From assembly GCA_964454175.1 (NCBI GenBank), contig CAYVSA010000044.1:1-17728 (forward strand): a stretch of DNA of 17,728 nucleotides, read 5' to 3'. The translations under genes were made by a program, and so were the position numbers. This DNA is from an uncultured Pseudomonadota bacterium. Its GTDB lineage: Bacteria > BMS3Abin14. Positions within the stretch are counted from its first letter, which is position 1. The number at the start of each line of letters is the position of its first letter. This document shows, one piece after another, positions 126-7,453 of the stretch. The notes below the pieces were generated by a model. That model was not told the origin of the DNA and searched no databases. It worked only from the letters and a program-made list of their open reading frames with translations.

Positions 126-305
126 ATGGAAAAAAGAGAAGAAAAGAGCTTATTCAAAAAGATCGGCAGAAACATAAGAAAAACTCTCGATGATCTTAAA
201 GAGGATTCCGTCGGTCATAACCCGACAAAACCTGTCGACTGCTGCAACCCTGATCTGCCCCCTAAAAAGACCGATGACTCGATTGGAAAGAGCAGCAGCC
301 GCTAA
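126..305 (+). CDS. 59-aa DCCNP-motif miniprotein A (putative metal-binding)
   Basis: Not in the ORF track. AAGGAGG precedes the ATG at 126. Manual translation gives MEKREEKSLFKKIGRNIRKTLDDLKEDSVGHNPTKPVDCCNPDLPPKKTDDSIGKSSSR, with TAA at 303-305. It has 20/59 gapless identity to the 5723-5902 product. Confidence 0.85.
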   Translation: MEKREEKSLFKKIGRNIRKTLDDLKEDSVGHNPTKPVDCCNPDLPPKKTDDSIGKSSSR

Positions 306-342: not shown

Positions 343-1158
343 TTATACCGAGTTGGCACCGACCTGCAGACCGTCAAAGCCCTGTGAAGTGCTTCTCCTG
401 GAAAGGATAGCCCAGGCAGCGACCGATAGAGGTACGACAACCAGACTGATCACCTGGCTAGTTGAAAGTGTAACGCCTGAAATTGCAAGAAATCCCCTGG
501 GATCTCCCCTTAAGAACTCCATTGCGAACCTCAGTATTCCGTAGAGAATTCCGTAAGAAGCTATCACCTGACCCTCGAAACGCGACACCTTGCGAATGCG
601 TATCAGAACCACAGCCAGCGCCATGAGCGACAATGATGAGTAGATCTGAACGGGGTGTACAGGAGTTCCGAGAACACCCTGGGCCAGAGACCTGGGGTCG
701 GTGAAAACGACCGCCCATGGCAGGTCCGTGGGCTTGCCGTAGCAGGACCCCGCGAAAAAACAGCCTATTCTTCCTATACCGTGTCCCAGTGCCACTGCTG
801 GAGCAACAGTGTCGGCGGACTTTAAAAGGTCCATTTTCAGGATCCTGGCTGCAACGATAAAGGCAACTGCACCGCCAATTAGTCCCCCGTAGAATACCAG
901 GCCACCTCTCCATATCATGGGGATCTCAAGGGGGTGGTTTGCAAAATACTTGAGGTTAACCAGCACGAAAAGAGACCTTGCGCCGATGATCACACCCACT
1001 AGCGTCAGAACGGCGAGATCGGAAAAAGCGCCCGGGTTCCCGCCGCCTCTCTTGTTAAGATACTCGGCGAAGACAACAGCTGCGATAATACCAAGGGCGA
1101 AAAATACTCCGTAGGTGTGAATGGTCAGAGGCCCAATATTAAAAAGTTCAGGATACAA
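343..1158 (-). CDS. lgt: prolipoprotein diacylglyceryl transferase family protein (variant signature)
   Basis: Multi-TM protein with motifs IHTYG, IWRGGLVFYGG, GRIGCFFAGSCYG, HPVQIY and RFAMEFLRGD. TTG start with a GGAGGAG SD. Confidence 0.9.
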   Translation of the reverse strand: MYPELFNIGPLTIHTYGVFFALGIIAAVVFAEYLNKRGGGNPGAFSDLAVLTLVGVIIGARSLFVLVNLKYFANHPLEIPMIWRGGLVFYGGLIGGAVAFIVAARILKMDLLKSADTVAPAVALGHGIGRIGCFFAGSCYGKPTDLPWAVVFTDPRSLAQGVLGTPVHPVQIYSSLSLMALAVVLIRIRKVSRFEGQVIASYGILYGILRFAMEFLRGDPRGFLAISGVTLSTSQVISLVVVPLSVAAWAILSRRSTSQGFDGLQVGANSV

Positions 1159-1175
1159 TGCTTCTCCTCCCTGTG

Positions 1176-1778
1176 TTAGAGGGTTTCTCCGCTGGCCCTT
1201 ATCTCATCGATCTGCTGATTCGCAGCCTTCCTGAGAGAATCATCTGGATTGGACGAGAGGATCTTGCGGAAATGCTCAAGGGCCGTTTTGTTATCACCCT
1301 TGTTGAACCGGTAAATGTGCCCCAGGAAGTAGTGAGCCTTTAGCTCTTCGGGTCTCAGTCTCAGCACATCCCTGAACCTGGCCATGGAATCGTCAGCCCT
1401 GTTAACCTTGAGATACAGCATGGCAAGGTCAGTCTGAACATGGATGCTGTCAGGGTCAACTTTTAGCGCAGTCTCGAAGATCTTGATCGCCTTTTGGGGC
1501 TGGTTCCCATCATAGTAGATATCACCAAGCTTGATCATGGCATCCATATTTTTCGGATTTTCCTCTATCTGCCTTTTCAGGTCAGCTTCCTGATATGAAG
1601 GGGAATTCCCCATGGGCCCTGCTGGTGTATTGCTGCCTGCCTGCCCGGCCACTACCGGATTGCGGGACGCCTTCAAATGTTTGATACCATTTCCTATGGC
1701 CATCAACGATACAAGGACAAGTATGAGCCAGAAGAAGGAAACAACCACAAATTCCTTCCTGCTTCTAATCGCTTCCAT
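1176..1778 (-). CDS. membrane-anchored TPR protein, CcmI/CycH/NrfG TPR-domain-like
   Basis: N-terminal TM followed by TPR-like helices (AMIKLGDIYY, AIKIFETALKVDP, AHYFLGHIY). Start reassigned to ATG 1778 (GAGGAG SD, 14-bp overlap with the upstream gene). ccm context. Confidence 0.75.
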   Translation of the reverse strand: MEAIRSRKEFVVVSFFWLILVLVSLMAIGNGIKHLKASRNPVVAGQAGSNTPAGPMGNSPSYQEADLKRQIEENPKNMDAMIKLGDIYYDGNQPQKAIKIFETALKVDPDSIHVQTDLAMLYLKVNRADDSMARFRDVLRLRPEELKAHYFLGHIYRFNKGDNKTALEHFRKILSSNPDDSLRKAANQQIDEIRASGETL

Positions 1779-2157
1779 CTTCTGTCTCCTCTTCATCGAC
1801 CTGAGCAGCCTCGTGCGGCAGATCTCCCCGGGCATTGGTCCTGATCTCATCATCTTCATGATAACCGTTTTCATCTTCGGTCTTGAGGAATTCGATATCA
1901 TCCATAATGCCGGCAACTTTCGCCCTGTAATGATCCCTGAGATCTTCGAAGTCCGGCTTGTTGATCTTCATGGAGGCAAACTCAAAATCGATATCCTTTA
2001 GAGCTTTAAGGTAGAGCTTCTTTTCCGCTTCCAACTCGATAATTTCCTCATCCAGTTCAGATTCCTCGTGTGCCCAAACCATCCTGTCGTGGACAAGGGG
2101 CTCAAGAGTGTAGAGCAGGGCCGCCAGGCCCACGATCACAAAGGCAAACACCATCAT
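1765..2157 (-). CDS. CcmI N-terminal-like protein (TM, helical segment, acidic tail)
   Basis: TM followed by LEAEKKLYLKALKDIDFEFASMKINKPDFEDLRDHY, which resembles the helical segment of CcmI N-domains. It lies between ccmH and the TPR gene. SD GAGGAGG. Confidence 0.6.
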   Translation of the reverse strand: MMVFAFVIVGLAALLYTLEPLVHDRMVWAHEESELDEEIIELEAEKKLYLKALKDIDFEFASMKINKPDFEDLRDHYRAKVAGIMDDIEFLKTEDENGYHEDDEIRTNARGDLPHEAAQVDEEETEDGSD

Positions 2158-2159
2158 GA

Positions 2160-2642
2160 TTATCCCTCCTCGATACTTTCAAGTTCATGGTCGATCCTGC
2201 TCTGCATCTCATCGCTTAACAGGTCGTTAGGATAGCCGTCTTCGCCATCCTCATCCTCATCGCCGTGATCAGGAAGTACCCACTTGCGAACGAGAACCAC
2301 CGCAATTCCCACACCGAAGAGCAAACCTACCCACGGGGCGGTGTAGGCGATTATGTTGAAACCCTTTTTAAGGGGAGCAGCCAGGATAGTCTCTCCATAC
2401 TTGGTGAGGTGCCACTGTACTATCTGCTCCTTGCTCTGGCCGTCATCGATCATCCCGCTGATAACCGCTCTCATCTCGTCAGAAGTTCCGCAGGAACAGG
2501 TATTCAGCACCATGGTGCACCCACAGGTACACATCAGTTCGGCCTCGACTTCGGTGGAGGTGAGGCTGTAACCAGTCACCGGCATTGAGAAAACGGCGAG
2601 GATGATAAGGACAGACACAGCTTTTATTTTAGGCGCCCTCAT
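2160..2642 (-). CDS. ccmH: cytochrome c biogenesis protein CcmH/NrfF family (5-Cys variant)
   Basis: Signal peptide, LMCTCGCTMVLNTCSC, MRAVISGMIDDGQSKEQIVQWHLTKYGETILAAP, C-terminal TM (YTAPW) and an acidic tail. Directly downstream of ccmF. Confidence 0.85.
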   Translation of the reverse strand: MRAPKIKAVSVLIILAVFSMPVTGYSLTSTEVEAELMCTCGCTMVLNTCSCGTSDEMRAVISGMIDDGQSKEQIVQWHLTKYGETILAAPLKKGFNIIAYTAPWVGLLFGVGIAVVLVRKWVLPDHGDEDEDGEDGYPNDLLSDEMQSRIDHELESIEEG

Positions 2643-4593
2643 AATGGACCTCTCTTTTCTGCCTTCTGGGGATTATTGCCAGAATACCGCCCAGGACCAT
2701 CACGATACTGCCGATCCAGACCCACACCTGCAAAGGATTAACGGCGGCTTTGAGGGTGATGTCGCGGCCCTCCCCGATAGCAGGCATGGTAATGTAAAGG
2801 TCCTCAACCAGAGTTGAGCGCAGGCTCACCTCCGTGGTTGGCTTGTCGGCCTTCGAATAGAACCTTTTTTCGGGGCTGATTGTTCCCAGGGACTGCCCGC
2901 CCTTGAATACAGCGAGGGTGGCGGTGAGTACATCTCTGTTGTAAAGCTTGTACCTTTTCAGGTCGTCGTACCTGAGCGTATAGGCACCGACTTTCAGTGT
3001 CTGCCCCGTGTTGAGAGTAGCCTGGGTCTCCTTCTTGTAGGCACTTGATCCGGTGATGCCTATTACCATTATCACGACACCCAGGTGGGCGATGAAGCCG
3101 CCGTATCTTCGCCTCATTTTCCACAGAAGCGACGGGAAGGCCAGATACGAAGGCTCACCCGTCAGGCGGCTTCTGGCTCTTGTACCAGTCCAGAACTCCC
3201 TTGCTATGGTAACCATCACAAATATGGACAGGGTAAAGGCGGCAAGTGGATAGAGGCCCCTGATCCCCATTGTGAAAAGCAGGACGGCACCCGTGACTGT
3301 TGCGGCAAGGGGGACCATGAAGTTCTTCTTCAGGTTGTCAGCCGACGCTTTCCGCCATCCTATCAACGGACAGAGTCCCGTTATAAGGATGAGTATGAGA
3401 AACAGGGGCGTATTGACGCGGTTGAAAAAGGGCTGGCTCACCGTGATCTTGTTGCCGGTAAATACCTCCGATATAAGGGGAAAAAGGGTACCCAGCAGAG
3501 TTGAAAATGCGAGCGCAAGAAGTATGACGTTATTGAAGAGGAAAGTGCTCTCGCGGGAAAGGTACGATTCAAGAGAATGTTCCGTCCTCAGGTCCCAGTA
3601 GCTCTCGGCTATGAGATATATGCCCCCGAAAAATGCCGTGGCCATGAAAACCAGGAAGTAGCCGCCAAGGCCGGTAGCACCAAAGTCGTGTACCGACTGC
3701 AGGACCCCGCTTCGCACAAGATAGGTCCCGAAAATTGAGAGCACGAAGGTCAATAGAATAAGCCACATGTTCCAGACCTTCATTATGTTTCTTCTCTCCT
3801 GGATGATGGAAGTGTGGATAAAGGCAGTGGCTACGAGCCAGGGTATGAAGGATGCGTTCTCCACCGGATCCCAGGCCCAGTATCCGCCCCAGCCCAATTC
3901 AACGTAGGCCCACTGTCCCCCCAGGATTATTCCGATACTCAAAAACACCCAGGAAAGCACATTCCAGGTTCTGGTCTTCCTCAGCCACGACTCATCCAGT
4001 TCACCCGCTACCAGTGCAGCTATCGCGTAGGCAAAGGGCACCGAGAACCCTACATAGCCCAAAAAGAGTGTGGGTGGGTGGAAGATCATTCCCGGGTTCT
4101 GAAGCATGGGATTGAGCCCCTGACCGTCCTTGGGGATATAGGGCAGGAGTTCAAAGGGATTCGTAACCGTCACCAGGAGAAACAAAAAGAAGCTCTGAAT
4201 GCCTGCCAGGACAAGGTAAATATACGGTGTCGCTCTCCTGTCCATATCATCCCTGGTGTTGTGAACAACCGCGCTTGTGATAAGGCTCAGGACCAGCGCC
4301 CAGAATAGAAGAGAGCCCTTCTGGCCAGCCCAGAAGGCTGTGAGCCTGTAGAAGATCGGCAGCGCACGGTCGGAATAGGAGGCGACATATTCAACCTGAA
4401 AGTTATTGGAACCGAACAGCAGGACCAGAGCAGTGGAAGCCATCACGGTAAAGAGGGTGACGTTGTGCAGCGATCTCCTGCTGACCAGGAACCACCTTGT
4501 GTCGTTTTTCATTATGCCTGTCAGTATCATGGCAATAGAGCCAAGAGTGAACAGGAATGCGAGCAGCTGTGACAGGGAGCCGAACTGAGGCAT
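2629..4593 (-). CDS. ccmF: cytochrome c heme lyase CcmF/NrfE family
   Basis: WWD motif WGGYWAWDPVENAS, plus WAGQKGSLLFW, GLNPMLQNPGMIFHPP, conserved His in AFIHTS and SVHDF, and C-terminal EDLY...NPLQVWVWIG. Confidence 0.97.
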   Translation of the reverse strand: MPQFGSLSQLLAFLFTLGSIAMILTGIMKNDTRWFLVSRRSLHNVTLFTVMASTALVLLFGSNNFQVEYVASYSDRALPIFYRLTAFWAGQKGSLLFWALVLSLITSAVVHNTRDDMDRRATPYIYLVLAGIQSFFLFLLVTVTNPFELLPYIPKDGQGLNPMLQNPGMIFHPPTLFLGYVGFSVPFAYAIAALVAGELDESWLRKTRTWNVLSWVFLSIGIILGGQWAYVELGWGGYWAWDPVENASFIPWLVATAFIHTSIIQERRNIMKVWNMWLILLTFVLSIFGTYLVRSGVLQSVHDFGATGLGGYFLVFMATAFFGGIYLIAESYWDLRTEHSLESYLSRESTFLFNNVILLALAFSTLLGTLFPLISEVFTGNKITVSQPFFNRVNTPLFLILILITGLCPLIGWRKASADNLKKNFMVPLAATVTGAVLLFTMGIRGLYPLAAFTLSIFVMVTIAREFWTGTRARSRLTGEPSYLAFPSLLWKMRRRYGGFIAHLGVVIMVIGITGSSAYKKETQATLNTGQTLKVGAYTLRYDDLKRYKLYNRDVLTATLAVFKGGQSLGTISPEKRFYSKADKPTTEVSLRSTLVEDLYITMPAIGEGRDITLKAAVNPLQVWVWIGSIVMVLGGILAIIPRRQKREVHYEGA

Positions 4594-4603
4594 AAATTAT
4601 CTC

Positions 4604-5014
4604 CTATTCAGGTGTCCCCTCCTCCACGTACTTGGAGGGGCATTTAGCTAGCAGCACTGAAGCGTTGAACAGGTTTTCTTCCCTGTCGTAAGCGCCTTCG
4701 AGTATGACTTCCACATCTTCCTTGAATGCGTCGGGCATTACTCCATTGTATGCCGCGTTAATGATCTTTCCAGTGTCTTCACTGTCCCTGACAGCAAAGG
4801 TGAGGAGGAGATCTTTCTGGTTGAAGTTGATCGTTCCATCAACTACTTCACCGCTGATCCTGACGGACCTGTTCCCCGAGCCAGCTTTTCCTGCGAGGAC
4901 CTCACTGACAGTCCAGTAGTAAACACCGCTCGTTGAAAGACCCGAAATTACAAGGTAGCTGACAACCAGAACAACTACGGTGACAGCAGCAACGGACCTC
5001 CAGTTCTTCTTCAT
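4604..5014 (-). CDS. ccmE: heme chaperone CcmE, Cys-type (CxxxY)
   Basis: N-terminal anchor, VYYWTVSE, VRISGEV, YNGVMPDAFKE and VLLAKCPSKY. Immediately upstream of ccmF. Confidence 0.93.
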   Translation of the reverse strand: MKKNWRSVAAVTVVVLVVSYLVISGLSTSGVYYWTVSEVLAGKAGSGNRSVRISGEVVDGTINFNQKDLLLTFAVRDSEDTGKIINAAYNGVMPDAFKEDVEVILEGAYDREENLFNASVLLAKCPSKYVEEGTPE

Positions 5015-5047
5015 CCACCAGCTCCGTTTCTGGAATCTGGATCGGCG

Positions 5048-5605
5048 CTATTCGTAGTCGTCATCATCGAGAATGACCCTGTCTTTTTCCCTGCGCCTCG
5101 AGCCCTGCCTTGAACGCTTGCGGTTCCTGGCAGAACTGCGCCTGTTGTTTTTCGAAGAACGGGAATTGCTTCGGCCTCTTTCACGGGAATTCTGCATCAG
5201 CCTGAATCCGGCAAAGAGAAACGCAGCCATCCCGAAGCCGATCAGGAAAATAGCCACAGAATTGGATTTCGAACCGTAGGTCTTGGCAACAGCCCCGGAC
5301 CCGCCTCCGTAGCTCTTTGGTGCTGCGCCAGCATTGACTACCAGCACCGACTCTCCAAAGCGATTCACGAAATCCTCTATGATCTGGTTCTCGGACCAGC
5401 CCTGGGCAACCATTTTTGTGATCTGGGCCCTGTATTCGTCCGACTGGGGGCACTCACAAGCTGTGAGCGTCTCGGTACAAGTACCGCAGCCGCACATAAA
5501 ATTGAGAGTCACACCTGACGCGGTTATGGCAAGGGCCGACACGGGAACCACAAGCATCGACATGACCATAATGAGAATTACAGGTAGATAAGCTCTTTTC
5601 TGCAT
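5048..5605 (-). CDS. second CcmH-like protein (5-Cys) with Arg/Ser-rich C-terminal tail
   Basis: Signal peptide, FMCGCGTCTETLTACECPQS, YRAQITKMVAQGWSENQIIEDFVNRFGESVL, a TM, then a basic tail. Start taken at ATG 5605 (GAGGGT SD); ATG 5644 is an alternative. Confidence 0.75.
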   Translation of the reverse strand: MQKRAYLPVILIMVMSMLVVPVSALAITASGVTLNFMCGCGTCTETLTACECPQSDEYRAQITKMVAQGWSENQIIEDFVNRFGESVLVVNAGAAPKSYGGGSGAVAKTYGSKSNSVAIFLIGFGMAAFLFAGFRLMQNSRERGRSNSRSSKNNRRSSARNRKRSRQGSRRREKDRVILDDDDYE

Positions 5606-5722
5606 TTTGATACCCTCGTTCAGTAGATTTTCTTTAGACATCATCCCGCCATCCTTCGAACCTTCAACCACAACGGACGCGGTGATCATCCATATCATGG
5701 CTGATCAGGTTCGCGGGCCAGC

Positions 5723-5902
5723 TCAGCCGGACTTTAATTTGAGACCGGAAGGCTGTTTCGATTTGGGTGGTACGGGCGGATTGCAGCAGTCAATGGGCCT
5801 GGGCTTGACGGTACTTACAGACTCGTTCTCCAGGTCCTTGAGGAACTTTTTGACTTTTATGCTGACTTCGTCCCAGTAACTGGTTCTGGTTTCAGGATCC
5901 AT
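5723..5902 (-). CDS. 59-aa DCCNP-motif miniprotein B (putative metal-binding)
   Basis: GGGAGGT SD (5913-5907) precedes ATG 5902. Sequence MDPETRTSYWDEVSIKVKKFLKDLENESVSTVKPRPIDCCNPPVPPKSKQPSGLKLKSG; paralogue of 126-305. Confidence 0.85.
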   Translation of the reverse strand: MDPETRTSYWDEVSIKVKKFLKDLENESVSTVKPRPIDCCNPPVPPKSKQPSGLKLKSG

Positions 5903-5906
5903 CCTT

Positions 5907-5988
5907 ACCTCCCGGGACCACACGCGGCCCCCAAAAAATTACGCAGCTGTTACGCCAAACAGATTCTGGAGTTCAGCTGCGGGGAGGT
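5907..5988 (-). promoter_or_regulatory. predicted attenuator RNA structure (anti-SD/SD helix plus two internal hairpins)
   Basis: In the mRNA, ACCUCCC (5988-5982) is complementary to the SD GGGAGGU (5913-5907). CGCAGCUG (5981-5974) is complementary to CAGCUGCG (5949-5942), which is followed by UAAUUUUUU. A GGGGCCG/UGGUCCC hairpin spans 5931-5914. Confidence 0.6.
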
Positions 5989-6218
5989 TTGAAGAAGGTG
6001 TCGGTGTGTTCCCTTTGCACAGCTGCCAGCTCTACCGTGGGAAGAGCCTGGAACTGCATCGGAATGATGAAGAGTGTTATCGTGACAATAAAGGCACAAA
6101 ATGAAAGCAGGCAAGTGGCGCCTGCATCGTGGTTTATAAGCAGATGATGGCCCAAAATGGCCATGACGGAAATTACCATCAGCAGCGTGACAAGCCTGAT
6201 GTGCCTCTTATGCATCAT
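5973..6218 (-). CDS. putative metal-sensing leader/arrest peptide (signal/TM, His, CxxxxC, C-terminal KPPR)
   Basis: 81 aa: basic N-terminus, hydrophobic segment, HH..H, C36-x4-C41, a second hydrophobic segment, ending FFKPPRS. First ORF of the operon; no clear SD. Confidence 0.65.
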   Translation of the reverse strand: MMHKRHIRLVTLLMVISVMAILGHHLLINHDAGATCLLSFCAFIVTITLFIIPMQFQALPTVELAAVQREHTDTFFKPPRS

Positions 6219-6715
6219 AGAGATGGCAGGTTTGTGATTCAGAGCCCTTCTCCCGGTCCGCGAACATTCACCCTGGTTCCTTCAACTCCACTCCGGCTTT
6301 TCTGCAATTTTCATTCCCCATCTTCAAAGTATTATTTTTCCACGGCAGCCGCGAACCTTGCAGGGAGTCGTGGCACAATTCAAGTATCTGAAAAATAAGG
6401 TTTTTATATATTCCTGCCCGAAAATATCGGGTAAATCTCAGGGAAGATCAGCATTTCCCGGATGGCGAACACCCTGAAATGGCTTCCACACAAAAGAGCA
6501 ATATTTGCGCTATAAGCCCCTTTTCATACGGTGATCCATCCTTGTGTATCCTTGCTTTCACAGCATTCAGCAGTACAAGTTGGTTACTGCGTAATTTTGG
6601 CGCAGCTGCTTCAAGGTATCAGTGAAGAGCATTGGATATTCTTCGATCCCGCCATGGACGGGACTCAGGGCCGTGAGCCTGCCAAACGGTTGGAACACTA
6701 GACATTGGACTCTAT

Positions 6716-7453
6716 TTAAAAACCATACAGAACTTTACGGGCTTCATCGGTGTAATTCCTATCCACACCCTCTTCGTAAAGGACCAGGGACGGCTCCTCG
6801 TGTATTGTTTCAACTGCCTTACCTTTGACGGCTTCTACCAGGACGAATGAGGGTGATCTTCCTTTGCGGGGCAGTACTTCGCGCTTCCTTGCGGGGGAAA
6901 AATCATACTTTTTCAGGGCCTCCAGGAGATCATCCAGCCGTTCCGGGAGATAAATCCACGCAGACATACCGCCTTCCCTGACAAGGCTGGCAGCTGCTCT
7001 GGCGAAGTCGTTCACGGTGCCCAGCAGCTCGTGCCGCGCCGCTGCCCTGGCCGGGTCAGGGCTAAGCCTGCCGGAGCCCAGCTTGTAGTAGGGAGGGTTT
7101 GCAACTGCCAGGTCAAATAAGCCGGGTGCTTTTCCCCAGGGAGGGGTTCTCAGGTCTCCGCACAGAAAATGAGCGTTCTTCAGACCACTTAGCGAAGCCC
7201 CTTCAGAGGCTTGCCTGACCAGGTCTGCCTGGACATCAACACCAAGGACACTGCACTCAGGATGGTCGTAGGCGAGCACCAGGCTTACCAGTCCATTGCC
7301 GCAGCCAAGATCTGCAACTTTCTGCCCCCGGGATGGCTTTACGTAGCGGGCCAGGAGGATACCATCCACACTGGCCTTTACACCGGAGCCCGACTGGACG
7401 AGGAAGAGTCCCTCACCAGCAAGCTCGTCGACAACCCGATCCCGCTCTGTCAA
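6716..7453 (-). CDS. tRNA1(Val) A37 N6-methyltransferase-like SAM-dependent methyltransferase (TrmN6/YfiC family)
   Basis: SVDGILLA, the SAM motif VADLGCGNG, NPPYY and ARHE. The TTG start overlaps the rimO stop (TTGA). Confidence 0.85.
   Translation of the reverse strand: MTERDRVVDELAGEGLFLVQSGSGVKASVDGILLARYVKPSRGQKVADLGCGNGLVSLVLAYDHPECSVLGVDVQADLVRQASEGASLSGLKNAHFLCGDLRTPPWGKAPGLFDLAVANPPYYKLGSGRLSPDPARAAARHELLGTVNDFARAAASLVREGGMSAWIYLPERLDDLLEALKKYDFSPARKREVLPRKGRSPSFVLVEAVKGKAVETIHEEPSLVLYEEGVDRNYTDEARKVLYGF

Follow-up and report, generated by a model that had tools for sequence, protein, structure and literature searches.

A candidate CutF-like leader peptide with a conserved C-terminal Pro-Pro motif upstream of a Cys-Cys miniprotein gene in an uncultured Pseudomonadota bacterium

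CutF of Rhodobacter capsulatus (cutFOG) is described as a 118 aa protein with a Sec signal peptide and a C-x3-C motif (PMC9973294; bioRxiv 10.1101/2025.02.05.636593). Its C-terminus is given as P-E-P-E-G-P-P-P-R-L-stop (bioRxiv 10.1101/2025.02.05.636593). It is reported to control cutO by way of a stem-loop that hides the Shine-Dalgarno sequence (SD), with stalling that depends on copper and on EF-P (PMC9973294; bioRxiv 10.1101/2025.02.05.636593). The operational filters described for CutF-like proteins ask for fewer than 150 aa, a Pro-Pro pair (PP) among the final 15 residues, a Cys/His motif, an N-terminal signal peptide and a gene that lies downstream on the same strand within less than 100 nt (PMC9973294). 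CruR (Bp2923) of Bordetella pertussis is described as a DUF2946 protein with a C-x-x-C motif that acts via Rho-dependent termination (PMC9426467), and arrest at its R-A-P-P is reported as demonstrated (PMC12992588). The RAPP/RGPP arrest peptides (ApdA, ApdP, S. lividans) are presented as small membrane or secreted proteins encoded upstream of genes that include metal-homeostasis and thiol-redox genes, some of them with conserved Cys/His and several membrane helices (PMC12992588). The sequence treated here is a leader open reading frame (ORF) of 81 aa, at positions 6218–5973 (minus strand) of contig CAYVSA010000044.1, assembly GCA_964454175.1, from an uncultured Pseudomonadota bacterium (GTDB lineage BMS3Abin14). 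The window is the whole stretch analysed, 17,728 nt; its genome is termed G000, and the other G and L labels denote genomes and loci of relatives. The leader ORF, defined from the ORF list and its homologues, stands upstream of a gene for a 59 aa miniprotein. Sequence comparison tentatively points to a CutF-like cis-acting regulator from a new family, a reading that is the best single explanation but is given somewhat less than an even chance.

The N-terminal part of the leader has a hydrophobic segment and the residues His24, His25 and His30. The Cys pair is Cys36-x4-Cys41, with codons at positions 6096–6113 (minus strand), at the start of a second helix. The protein ends in F-F-K-P-P-R-S-stop, and Pro78 is 37 residues past Cys41. 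The codons K77-P78-P79-R80-S81-stop occupy positions 5973–5990 (minus strand) and represent a family motif, [RK]-P-P-[RK]-x-stop; those for K77-P78-P79 are AAA CCT CCC (5990–5982). A preliminary description of the window, made without database searches, had listed the hydrophobic segment, the His residues, the Cys pair, the F-K-P-P-R-S ending and the 37-residue spacing, and each was found where it had been placed. The AlphaFold2 (AF2) model has helices at residues 3–28 and 33–72 and a coil tail, with a predicted local distance difference test score (pLDDT) of 72. In this model a basic stretch at the N-terminus is followed by the hydrophobic helix 3–28, and the presence of a second hydrophobic helix, 33–72, speaks for a membrane hairpin and less for an export signal that is cleaved off. 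The predicted arrangement is a two-helix membrane hairpin that would place the His/Cys cluster at the outer turn and leave the PP tail on the cytoplasmic side.

The 81 aa ORF is a genuine gene under purifying selection. A profile search of 5.8 billion proteins gives 33 homologues of approximately 83 aa each, all unnamed and without Pfam domains. The ratio of nonsynonymous to synonymous substitution (dN/dS) is 0.11–0.38 in 10 pairs and 0.48 in one further pair. Conservation of the ORF and of the distance from Cys to PP had been proposed as tests in the preliminary description, and both came out in its favour: the alignment of the 33 sequences has no indels from the first helix to the end, and Cys36, Cys41, Pro78 and Arg80 are invariant. 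The pair P78-P79 keeps its position three residues from the end in all of the aligned homologues except one, which has P-Q. An exhaustive hidden Markov model (HMM) search of 1.84 billion cluster representatives gives 16 matches. Fifteen are judged true (70–96 aa), and all 15 terminate in [RK]-P-P-[RK]; the sixteenth is a 335 aa repetitive protein and is regarded as spurious. Among 26 diverse family members Cys36 is invariant and Cys41 is present in at least 90%, and His25, like the two Cys, is invariant or nearly so in the family. Two distant clusters are without the second Cys and retain R-P-P-R.

Conservation is concentrated at the C-terminus. The last 12 residues (positions 70–81) have the highest mean column conservation, 0.78, and the closest relative, P0022 (65% identical), has 22 of the final 24 residues in common with the leader but only 31 of the first 57. 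The distance from the motif to the stop codon is one residue in 39 of 43 distinct sequences; it is five residues in two, six in one and 14 in one. The motif can be extended to [E/F/D/K]-[R/K]-P-P-[R/K], and neither R-A-P-P nor R-G-P-P is found in any member of the leader family.

By sequence searches the family appears new and narrowly distributed; it was compared with CutF-like proteins by published criteria. Of the 16 genomes that the phylum contains, six have it (E up to 0.001), and the order-level search gave the same result. A search of 401 relatives with a wider profile shows nothing convincing in 385 genomes of other lineages, the matches outside the phylum all having E values of at least 1e-4 and several having stop codons. 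A pattern scan of genome contigs with a tighter alignment gave 35 matches, none of them confirmed. A metagenome scan gave four candidate loci; the metagenome locus L040, which has high GC and no family ORF, was judged spurious. A genome-wide scan for small ORFs with a hydrophobic N-terminus, at least two Cys and a C-terminal PP shows 12 matches versus seven in the reversed genome, and only the window ORF looks real, which means that the features by themselves carry no significance. The leader has apparently decayed in two genomes, with P-Q in place of P-P in G001 and a remnant without Cys or PP in G002. That it is optional and looks decayed in these genomes fits a regulatory add-on.

The miniprotein gene (positions 5723–5902, minus strand) has an invariant D-C-C and a conserved N-P-P in an alignment of 13 relatives. 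Its start is at 5902 and not at 5905, which gives the 59 aa. The miniprotein family consists of at least 139 homologues, all unnamed and without Pfam domains. The NCBIfam model NF040898 (CC_mini_metal, 'LDCC motif putative metal-binding protein') matches 1 of the 13 members with 15.1–15.2 bits (E 0.014–0.015) and does not reach its cut-off of 30. Linkage of leader and miniprotein is conserved. An intact miniprotein gene follows the leader in six of the nine loci that have downstream sequence (G000, G001, G003, G009, L037 and L039), and G005 represents a seventh linked locus, where the miniprotein is reduced to its start, which is fused to other sequence. The spacer measures 70 nt in the window and 55–70 nt in the seven loci measured. 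Miniprotein-like matches are present in 13 of the 16 phylum genomes, 12 of them at E below 1e-4. In genomes that lack the leader, the miniprotein gene comes immediately after the CcmH-like gene. In G001 and G009 the CcmH-like gene precedes the leader, and the unit ends with the miniprotein; only in the window does the unit run on into CcmH-like, ccmE, ccmF, ccmH, TPR and lgt genes. The link to ccm is not conserved. The preliminary description had named the miniprotein-ccm-lgt operon as the downstream target, and this has to be revised, as the conserved partner is the miniprotein and the CcmH-like gene is upstream of the leader in two relatives.

The SD of the miniprotein gene, GGGAGGU, is at positions 5907–5913 (minus strand), 4 nt ahead of the ATG at 5902. 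The anti-SD ACCUCCC (5982–5988, minus strand) is inside the K-P-P codons. It is an exact 7 nt complement (5988–5982 with 5913–5907) and is paired in both the minimum free energy (MFE) structure and the centroid. The R-S-stop codons provide the 5' arm (CGCAGCUG) of a long interrupted hairpin at 5942–5981 (minus strand). In this hairpin CGCAGCTG (5981–5974, R-S-stop codons) and CAGCTGCG (5949–5942) have 24 nt between them, and TAATTTTTT (5941–5933) follows. The UAAUUUUUU run after the hairpin (5933–5941, minus strand) is terminator-like and is found in this genome only. A third hairpin, GGGGCC-GCGUGU-GGUCCC (5914–5931, minus strand), abuts the SD and persists in folds where the 3' end of the leader is masked. 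Secondary structure modeling of positions 6010–5890 shows a three-way junction that is both the MFE structure and the centroid, with a free energy of -47.4 kcal/mol and z = -3.16; one of 200 dinucleotide shuffles folds as well. The exact match to the SD, the hairpin with its trailing run and the junction had all been proposed in the preliminary description, and all three are borne out. No match to Rfam is found in positions 5000–7000 (E up to 1). Among sequencing runs, no RNA run with the locus was found; the one DNA run, with a small share, gave a single 191 nt contig at 5477–5667, away from the leader and the junction.

The ribosome-binding site (RBS) of the miniprotein gene is unusually structured. 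The SD has a pairing probability of 0.999. Among 1139 ORFs with a strong SD in this genome, 0.7% come up to this value, and 0.09% come up to its pairing with a partner at least 40 nt upstream. The opening energy from SD to AUG is 13.5 kcal/mol, which is reached by 4.4% of 297 sampled genes, the background median being 7.2 kcal/mol. A comparison of seven leader-linked loci (G000, G001, G003, G005, G009, L037 and L039) with five leaderless miniprotein genes extends this result beyond the window. Pairing probabilities of the SD are 0.999, 0.99, 0.974, 0.917, 0.846, 0.827 and 0.602 in the leader loci, six of the seven exceeding the 75th percentile of the G000 background, versus 0.86, 0.75, 0.64, 0.39 and 0.60 in the leaderless genes. 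Opening energies are 13.5, 10.7, 13.3, 7.2, 5.2, 9.8 and 14.7 kcal/mol with a leader and 9.6, 2.8, 6.4, 4.2 and 2.0 kcal/mol without. Leader-linked values are the higher in a one-sided Mann-Whitney test (p = 0.009 for opening energy and p = 0.024 for pairing probability), but these p-values overstate the case because the loci are related and the background is from one genome.

A comparison with CutF shows both likenesses and differences. Four of the five filters of PMC9973294, as given there, apply to the leader, and for the fifth, the signal peptide, only the hydrophobic N-terminal helix is seen; the likeness to CutF-type leaders drawn in the preliminary description is upheld to this extent. 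The Cys/His motif is of a putative metal-binding type. The downstream gene has a stem-loop-shielded SD in the window, with weaker and differently built shielding in relatives. As in CutF, the protein is small (81 versus 118 aa), has a putative N-terminal targeting segment and a pair of spaced Cys (C-x4-C versus C-x3-C), and ends in a PP-R-x-stop layout (KPPRS-stop or ERPPRI-stop versus GPPPRL-stop), with a short spacer to a next gene whose SD is hidden in RNA structure. CutF has a cleaved, exported domain, whereas the leader has two predicted membrane helices, and CutF has PPP in a strong context, whereas the leader has PP in a context classed as weak. The target of CutF is a multicopper oxidase; here it would be a cytoplasmic 59 aa Cys-Cys miniprotein, with ccm genes, in a small uncultivated phylum. 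The leader, in addition, has no DUF2946 similarity.

DUF2946 (PF11162) was looked for at several levels. Pfam gives no hit to it for the leader ORF (E up to 0.01), and it is not among the 25 families listed of 45 that were matched by 33 members (E up to 10). A six-frame search of this genome shows no DUF2946 match at the locus, and none is found in the 16 genomes of the phylum (E up to 1e-4). An hhalign comparison of the leader with one DUF2946 protein gives a probability of 0.18%. An Atlas feature search gives a 'DUF2946 domain-containing' cluster at 0.84, which is below the counting level. The leader thus resembles CruR in being an upstream ORF with a Cys motif, whose C-terminal Pro-Pro would govern downstream genes after transcription start. 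It is unlike CruR in other respects: R-A-P-P, DUF2946 and Rho stand against [RK]-P-P-[RK], no DUF2946 match and a sole terminator-like element that is a genome-specific hairpin with U-run. With the RAPP/RGPP arrest peptides the family has in common a Pro-Pro near the C-terminus of small membrane or secreted proteins, but in those the motif is R-[AG]-P-P (or RAPG/RAGP), while the leader family has Arg or Lys before PP, preceded by Glu, Phe, Asp (or Lys). Monitoring of Sec or YidC of the SecM/MifM type was considered and rejected, because the downstream gene is not a localisation factor.

If the CutF-like interpretation is correct, a ribosome at the P-P-R-x-stop end of the leader would probably pause and would cover or melt the helices that hide the miniprotein SD. 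In this genome the same ribosome would also cover the 5' arm of the terminator-like hairpin. The miniprotein, and here also the co-transcribed ccm genes, would in this way be expressed in step with translation of the leader, and the pause length may be modulated by the state of the nascent peptide, either its membrane insertion or metal/thiol chemistry at the His/Cys site. That the ribosome pauses, that a signal modulates the pause and that expression responds is inferred. The proposal of the preliminary description that a paused ribosome frees the SD agrees with the folds of some loci and not of others. Masking at the second Pro codon or at the stop codon lowers the opening energy by 3.0 kcal/mol in G000, 5.7–6.4 kcal/mol in G009 and 2.5–3.3 kcal/mol in G001, that is, by at least 2 kcal/mol in three of the seven loci; in a fourth, L037, it is lowered by 1.9 kcal/mol, with the mask at the stop only. 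In G003, G005 and L039 the effect on opening of the RBS is 0.7 kcal/mol or less. In four of the seven loci, a ribosome positioned on the second Pro codon would have the dominant anti-SD inside its footprint or adjoining it.

The lack of an effect in those three loci is one of a number of points that count against this mechanism. The masked MFE folds of G000 still hold the SD paired, if more weakly. The main partner of the SD varies between loci, and it is formed by the PP codons in only two of the seven, G000 and G003. The partner in G001 and G009 is the L-L-F codons, five codons before the PP codons; in G005 and L039 it is a local hairpin, and in L037 a stretch past the stop. No compensatory covariation is seen: L037 has CCC CCC versus GGAGG, and L039 has GGGGG versus CCUCCC. 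The covariation expected in the preliminary description is not borne out, since changes in either partner are uncompensated, and a switch with the anti-SD in the PP codons is not conserved. Synonymous conservation of the PP codons is also unexceptional, with 6 of 17 four-fold conserved columns at least 4/5 identical. The K/R-P-P-R contexts of the leader family fall in the 'weak' class of an E. coli-based table, where ERPPR, EKPPR, FKPPR, FRPPR and DRPPR are weak stallers and GPPPR is 'strong', and according to the same source Asp, Glu, Gly, Asn, Ser or Trp at +1 would stall better than Arg (PMC5811046). EF-P is encoded in this genome. Both leader helices are conserved over their full length, as for a stable protein. 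There is no miniprotein gene after the leader in G012 (225 nt available) or L038 (157 nt available), and the paralogous leaders discussed below are not followed by a miniprotein gene. The leader of G000 itself has no recognisable SD within 15 nt before its ATG ATG start (window positions 6219–6260, minus strand). The nearest GGGAGAAGGG is approximately 26 nt upstream of that start, and AGGAG-type sites precede the ATG or GTG starts of the leader in most relatives.

An explanation that is nearly as likely as the CutF-like one, and is regarded as a serious possibility, is that the leader encodes a stable accessory membrane protein, for instance one for metal or thiol handling, acting with the D-C-C-N-P miniprotein and the CcmH-like protein, with RPPR as a contact motif and the RNA fold as ordinary or incidental coupling. 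The conservation of the whole protein including both helices (dN/dS 0.11–0.48) and a helical hairpin that is predicted confidently enough would follow from such a role, as would the tight linkage of the leader and miniprotein genes, which would be expected of partner proteins. It would also account for a motif of the weak polyproline class in which Arg at +1 is nearly invariant though better-stalling residues exist, for an RBS that, by prediction, does not respond to a leader ribosome in three of seven loci, and for loci without a miniprotein (L038, G012) or without a close next gene (G004, where 417 nt separate the leader-family gene from the next gene). Against such a role, most of the phylum does without the protein and yet retains the miniprotein and the CcmH-like gene. 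The last residue varies at a fixed distance of the motif from the stop, which is like arrest leaders and unlike C-terminal recognition motifs, and the RBSs linked to a leader are more structured than the leaderless ones.

Two other explanations leave the nascent peptide without a sensing role, and both are thought unlikely. E. coli pyrBI has a translation-coupled attenuator leader, and a comparable arrangement here would place the 5' arm of an intrinsic terminator or attenuator in the last leader codons, so that any ribosome that reaches the stop close behind RNA polymerase prevents termination and opens the SD, while the peptide serves another purpose. In this genome the leader ORF does extend into the 5' arm of the U-run hairpin, so a ribosome at the end of the leader would block the hairpin as in pyrBI: the R-S-stop codons are part of the stem and UAAUUUUUU follows it, masking of the leader end costs 16–19 kcal/mol of structure, and no promoter-like site was found in the 70 nt spacer between leader and miniprotein. 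The terminator-like hairpin of the preliminary description is, however, a feature of the window only; no hairpin with a U-run is found in the six other loci folded. A UAA stands between stem and U-run, and the terminator scan did not list the site owing to its loop rule of 3–8 nt. The invariant PP-R-x-stop and the conserved Cys, which have no pyrBI counterpart, would be left unexplained. It is similarly doubtful that the peptide is real and the RNA match a matter of chance, the ACCUCCC:GGGAGGU pairing and the junction being by-products of Pro-Pro codons and a strong SD. A PP pair with CCT as first codon always yields CCTCC, which makes the core of the anti-SD match cheap, and CCT is the first codon in 27% of the 424 PP pairs of this genome. 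The background median of SD pairing is already 0.70, the SD keeps its pairing even if the PP codons are forced open, which costs only 3.6 kcal/mol, and the partner is neither conserved nor covarying. Chance does not readily account for a fold with z = -3.16, for SD pairing and long-range pairing that 0.7% and 0.09% of the genes reach, or for the difference between leader-linked and leaderless RBSs.

The CutF-like interpretation can be put in a more specific form, which is rather improbable. In this version the nascent peptide, with two helices inserted in the membrane and a sequence unrelated to DUF2946, would use its His/Cys cluster to signal the thiol-redox or metal state of the periplasm while P-P-R-x-stop is in the ribosome, and the pause length would set transcriptional read-through and opening of the RBS for the miniprotein and, here, the ccm genes. 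No described case of control of cytochrome c maturation by an arrest peptide, by stalling or by an upstream ORF was found; 'cytochrome c maturation' does not occur in the papers listed for these topics, and neither 'cytochrome' nor 'ccm' is mentioned in PMC12992588.

Downstream of the miniprotein gene in the window is a CcmH/NrfF-like gene identified by Pfam (positions 5048–5698, minus strand; probable start near 5605), with no U-run terminator between the two. It is followed by ccmE, ccmF, ccmH, an unnamed ORF, a TPR (CcmI-like) gene and lgt, as assigned by Pfam. The CcmH/NrfF-like paralogues at 5048–5698 and 2160–2642 (minus strand) have an unusual Cys cluster, M-C-x-C-G-x-C ... C-x-C. The first of them also has a long, basic, Ser/Arg-rich cytoplasmic tail with an acidic end, D-D-D-D-Y-E; this tail is conserved in relatives as ...DDDLLDDY... 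A second miniprotein paralogue (126–305, plus strand; ORF list and alignment) converges on lgt. The 125 nt available ahead of it contain no leader, and sequestration of its RBS is not predicted (SD pairing probability 0.60, opening energy 2.0 kcal/mol). The two paralogous 59 aa miniproteins (126–305, plus strand, and 5723–5902, minus strand) therefore bracket the ccm-lgt block, and across the phylum the miniprotein family adjoins a CcmH-like gene and lgt. At the G005 locus (L005, approximately 1226–1360, minus strand) the miniprotein start M-E-K-R-K-D joins a sequence like the C-terminal part of a 210 aa secreted protein, which in G003 is encoded downstream of the miniprotein gene. The join represents either a deletion/fusion or an assembly join.

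Upstream of the leader, L005, L037 and L039 (and partly L003 and L038) have a conserved block at approximately 150–190 nt from the leader start. It contains a promoter-like pair, TTGAC(A/T)-17 nt-TAnnnT, followed by a GC-rich hairpin with a T-run, and it also holds (A/G)TGATTA at approximately 35–45 nt before the leader start. The block of L005, L037 and L039 is not alignable with window positions 6219–6420.

A paralogous subfamily of leaders is found in metal-island-like loci: L058 of G001 (positions 756–3081), L012 of G004 (1384–2558) and L036 of G009 (157–1859). The endings found in the subfamily are HRPPRA, FERPPEK and LDRPPRI. In two genomes, G001 and G004, the subfamily adjoins CsoR-type metal repressors (PF02583), a metal context that counts in favour of the CutF-like interpretation, and the G009 paralogue adjoins an RseC-like gene and a His/Met-rich protein. 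A His/Met/Gly-rich protein is present in both the G001 and the G009 islands. The G001 island also encodes a 71 aa C-x2-C...C-x3-C protein without a Pfam hit, whose motif we take to be TRASH-like.

Even if the regulatory interpretation fails, the family is an unannotated small membrane protein with an invariant C-terminus. If that interpretation is correct, the principle seen in CutF and CruR, in which a nascent membrane-targeted Cys/His peptide sets downstream expression via a C-terminal proline motif, would have arisen in a family with no detectable DUF2946 similarity, with a different topology and in an uncultivated phylum. In the more specific form described above, the leader would be the first nascent-chain sensor known to control a ccm operon, and the CutF principle would have been invented independently. 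If the regulatory interpretation holds, the locus would widen the range of such sensors, offer a first hint that cytochrome c maturation is under this type of control and open a way into a miniprotein family with at least 139 unnamed members.

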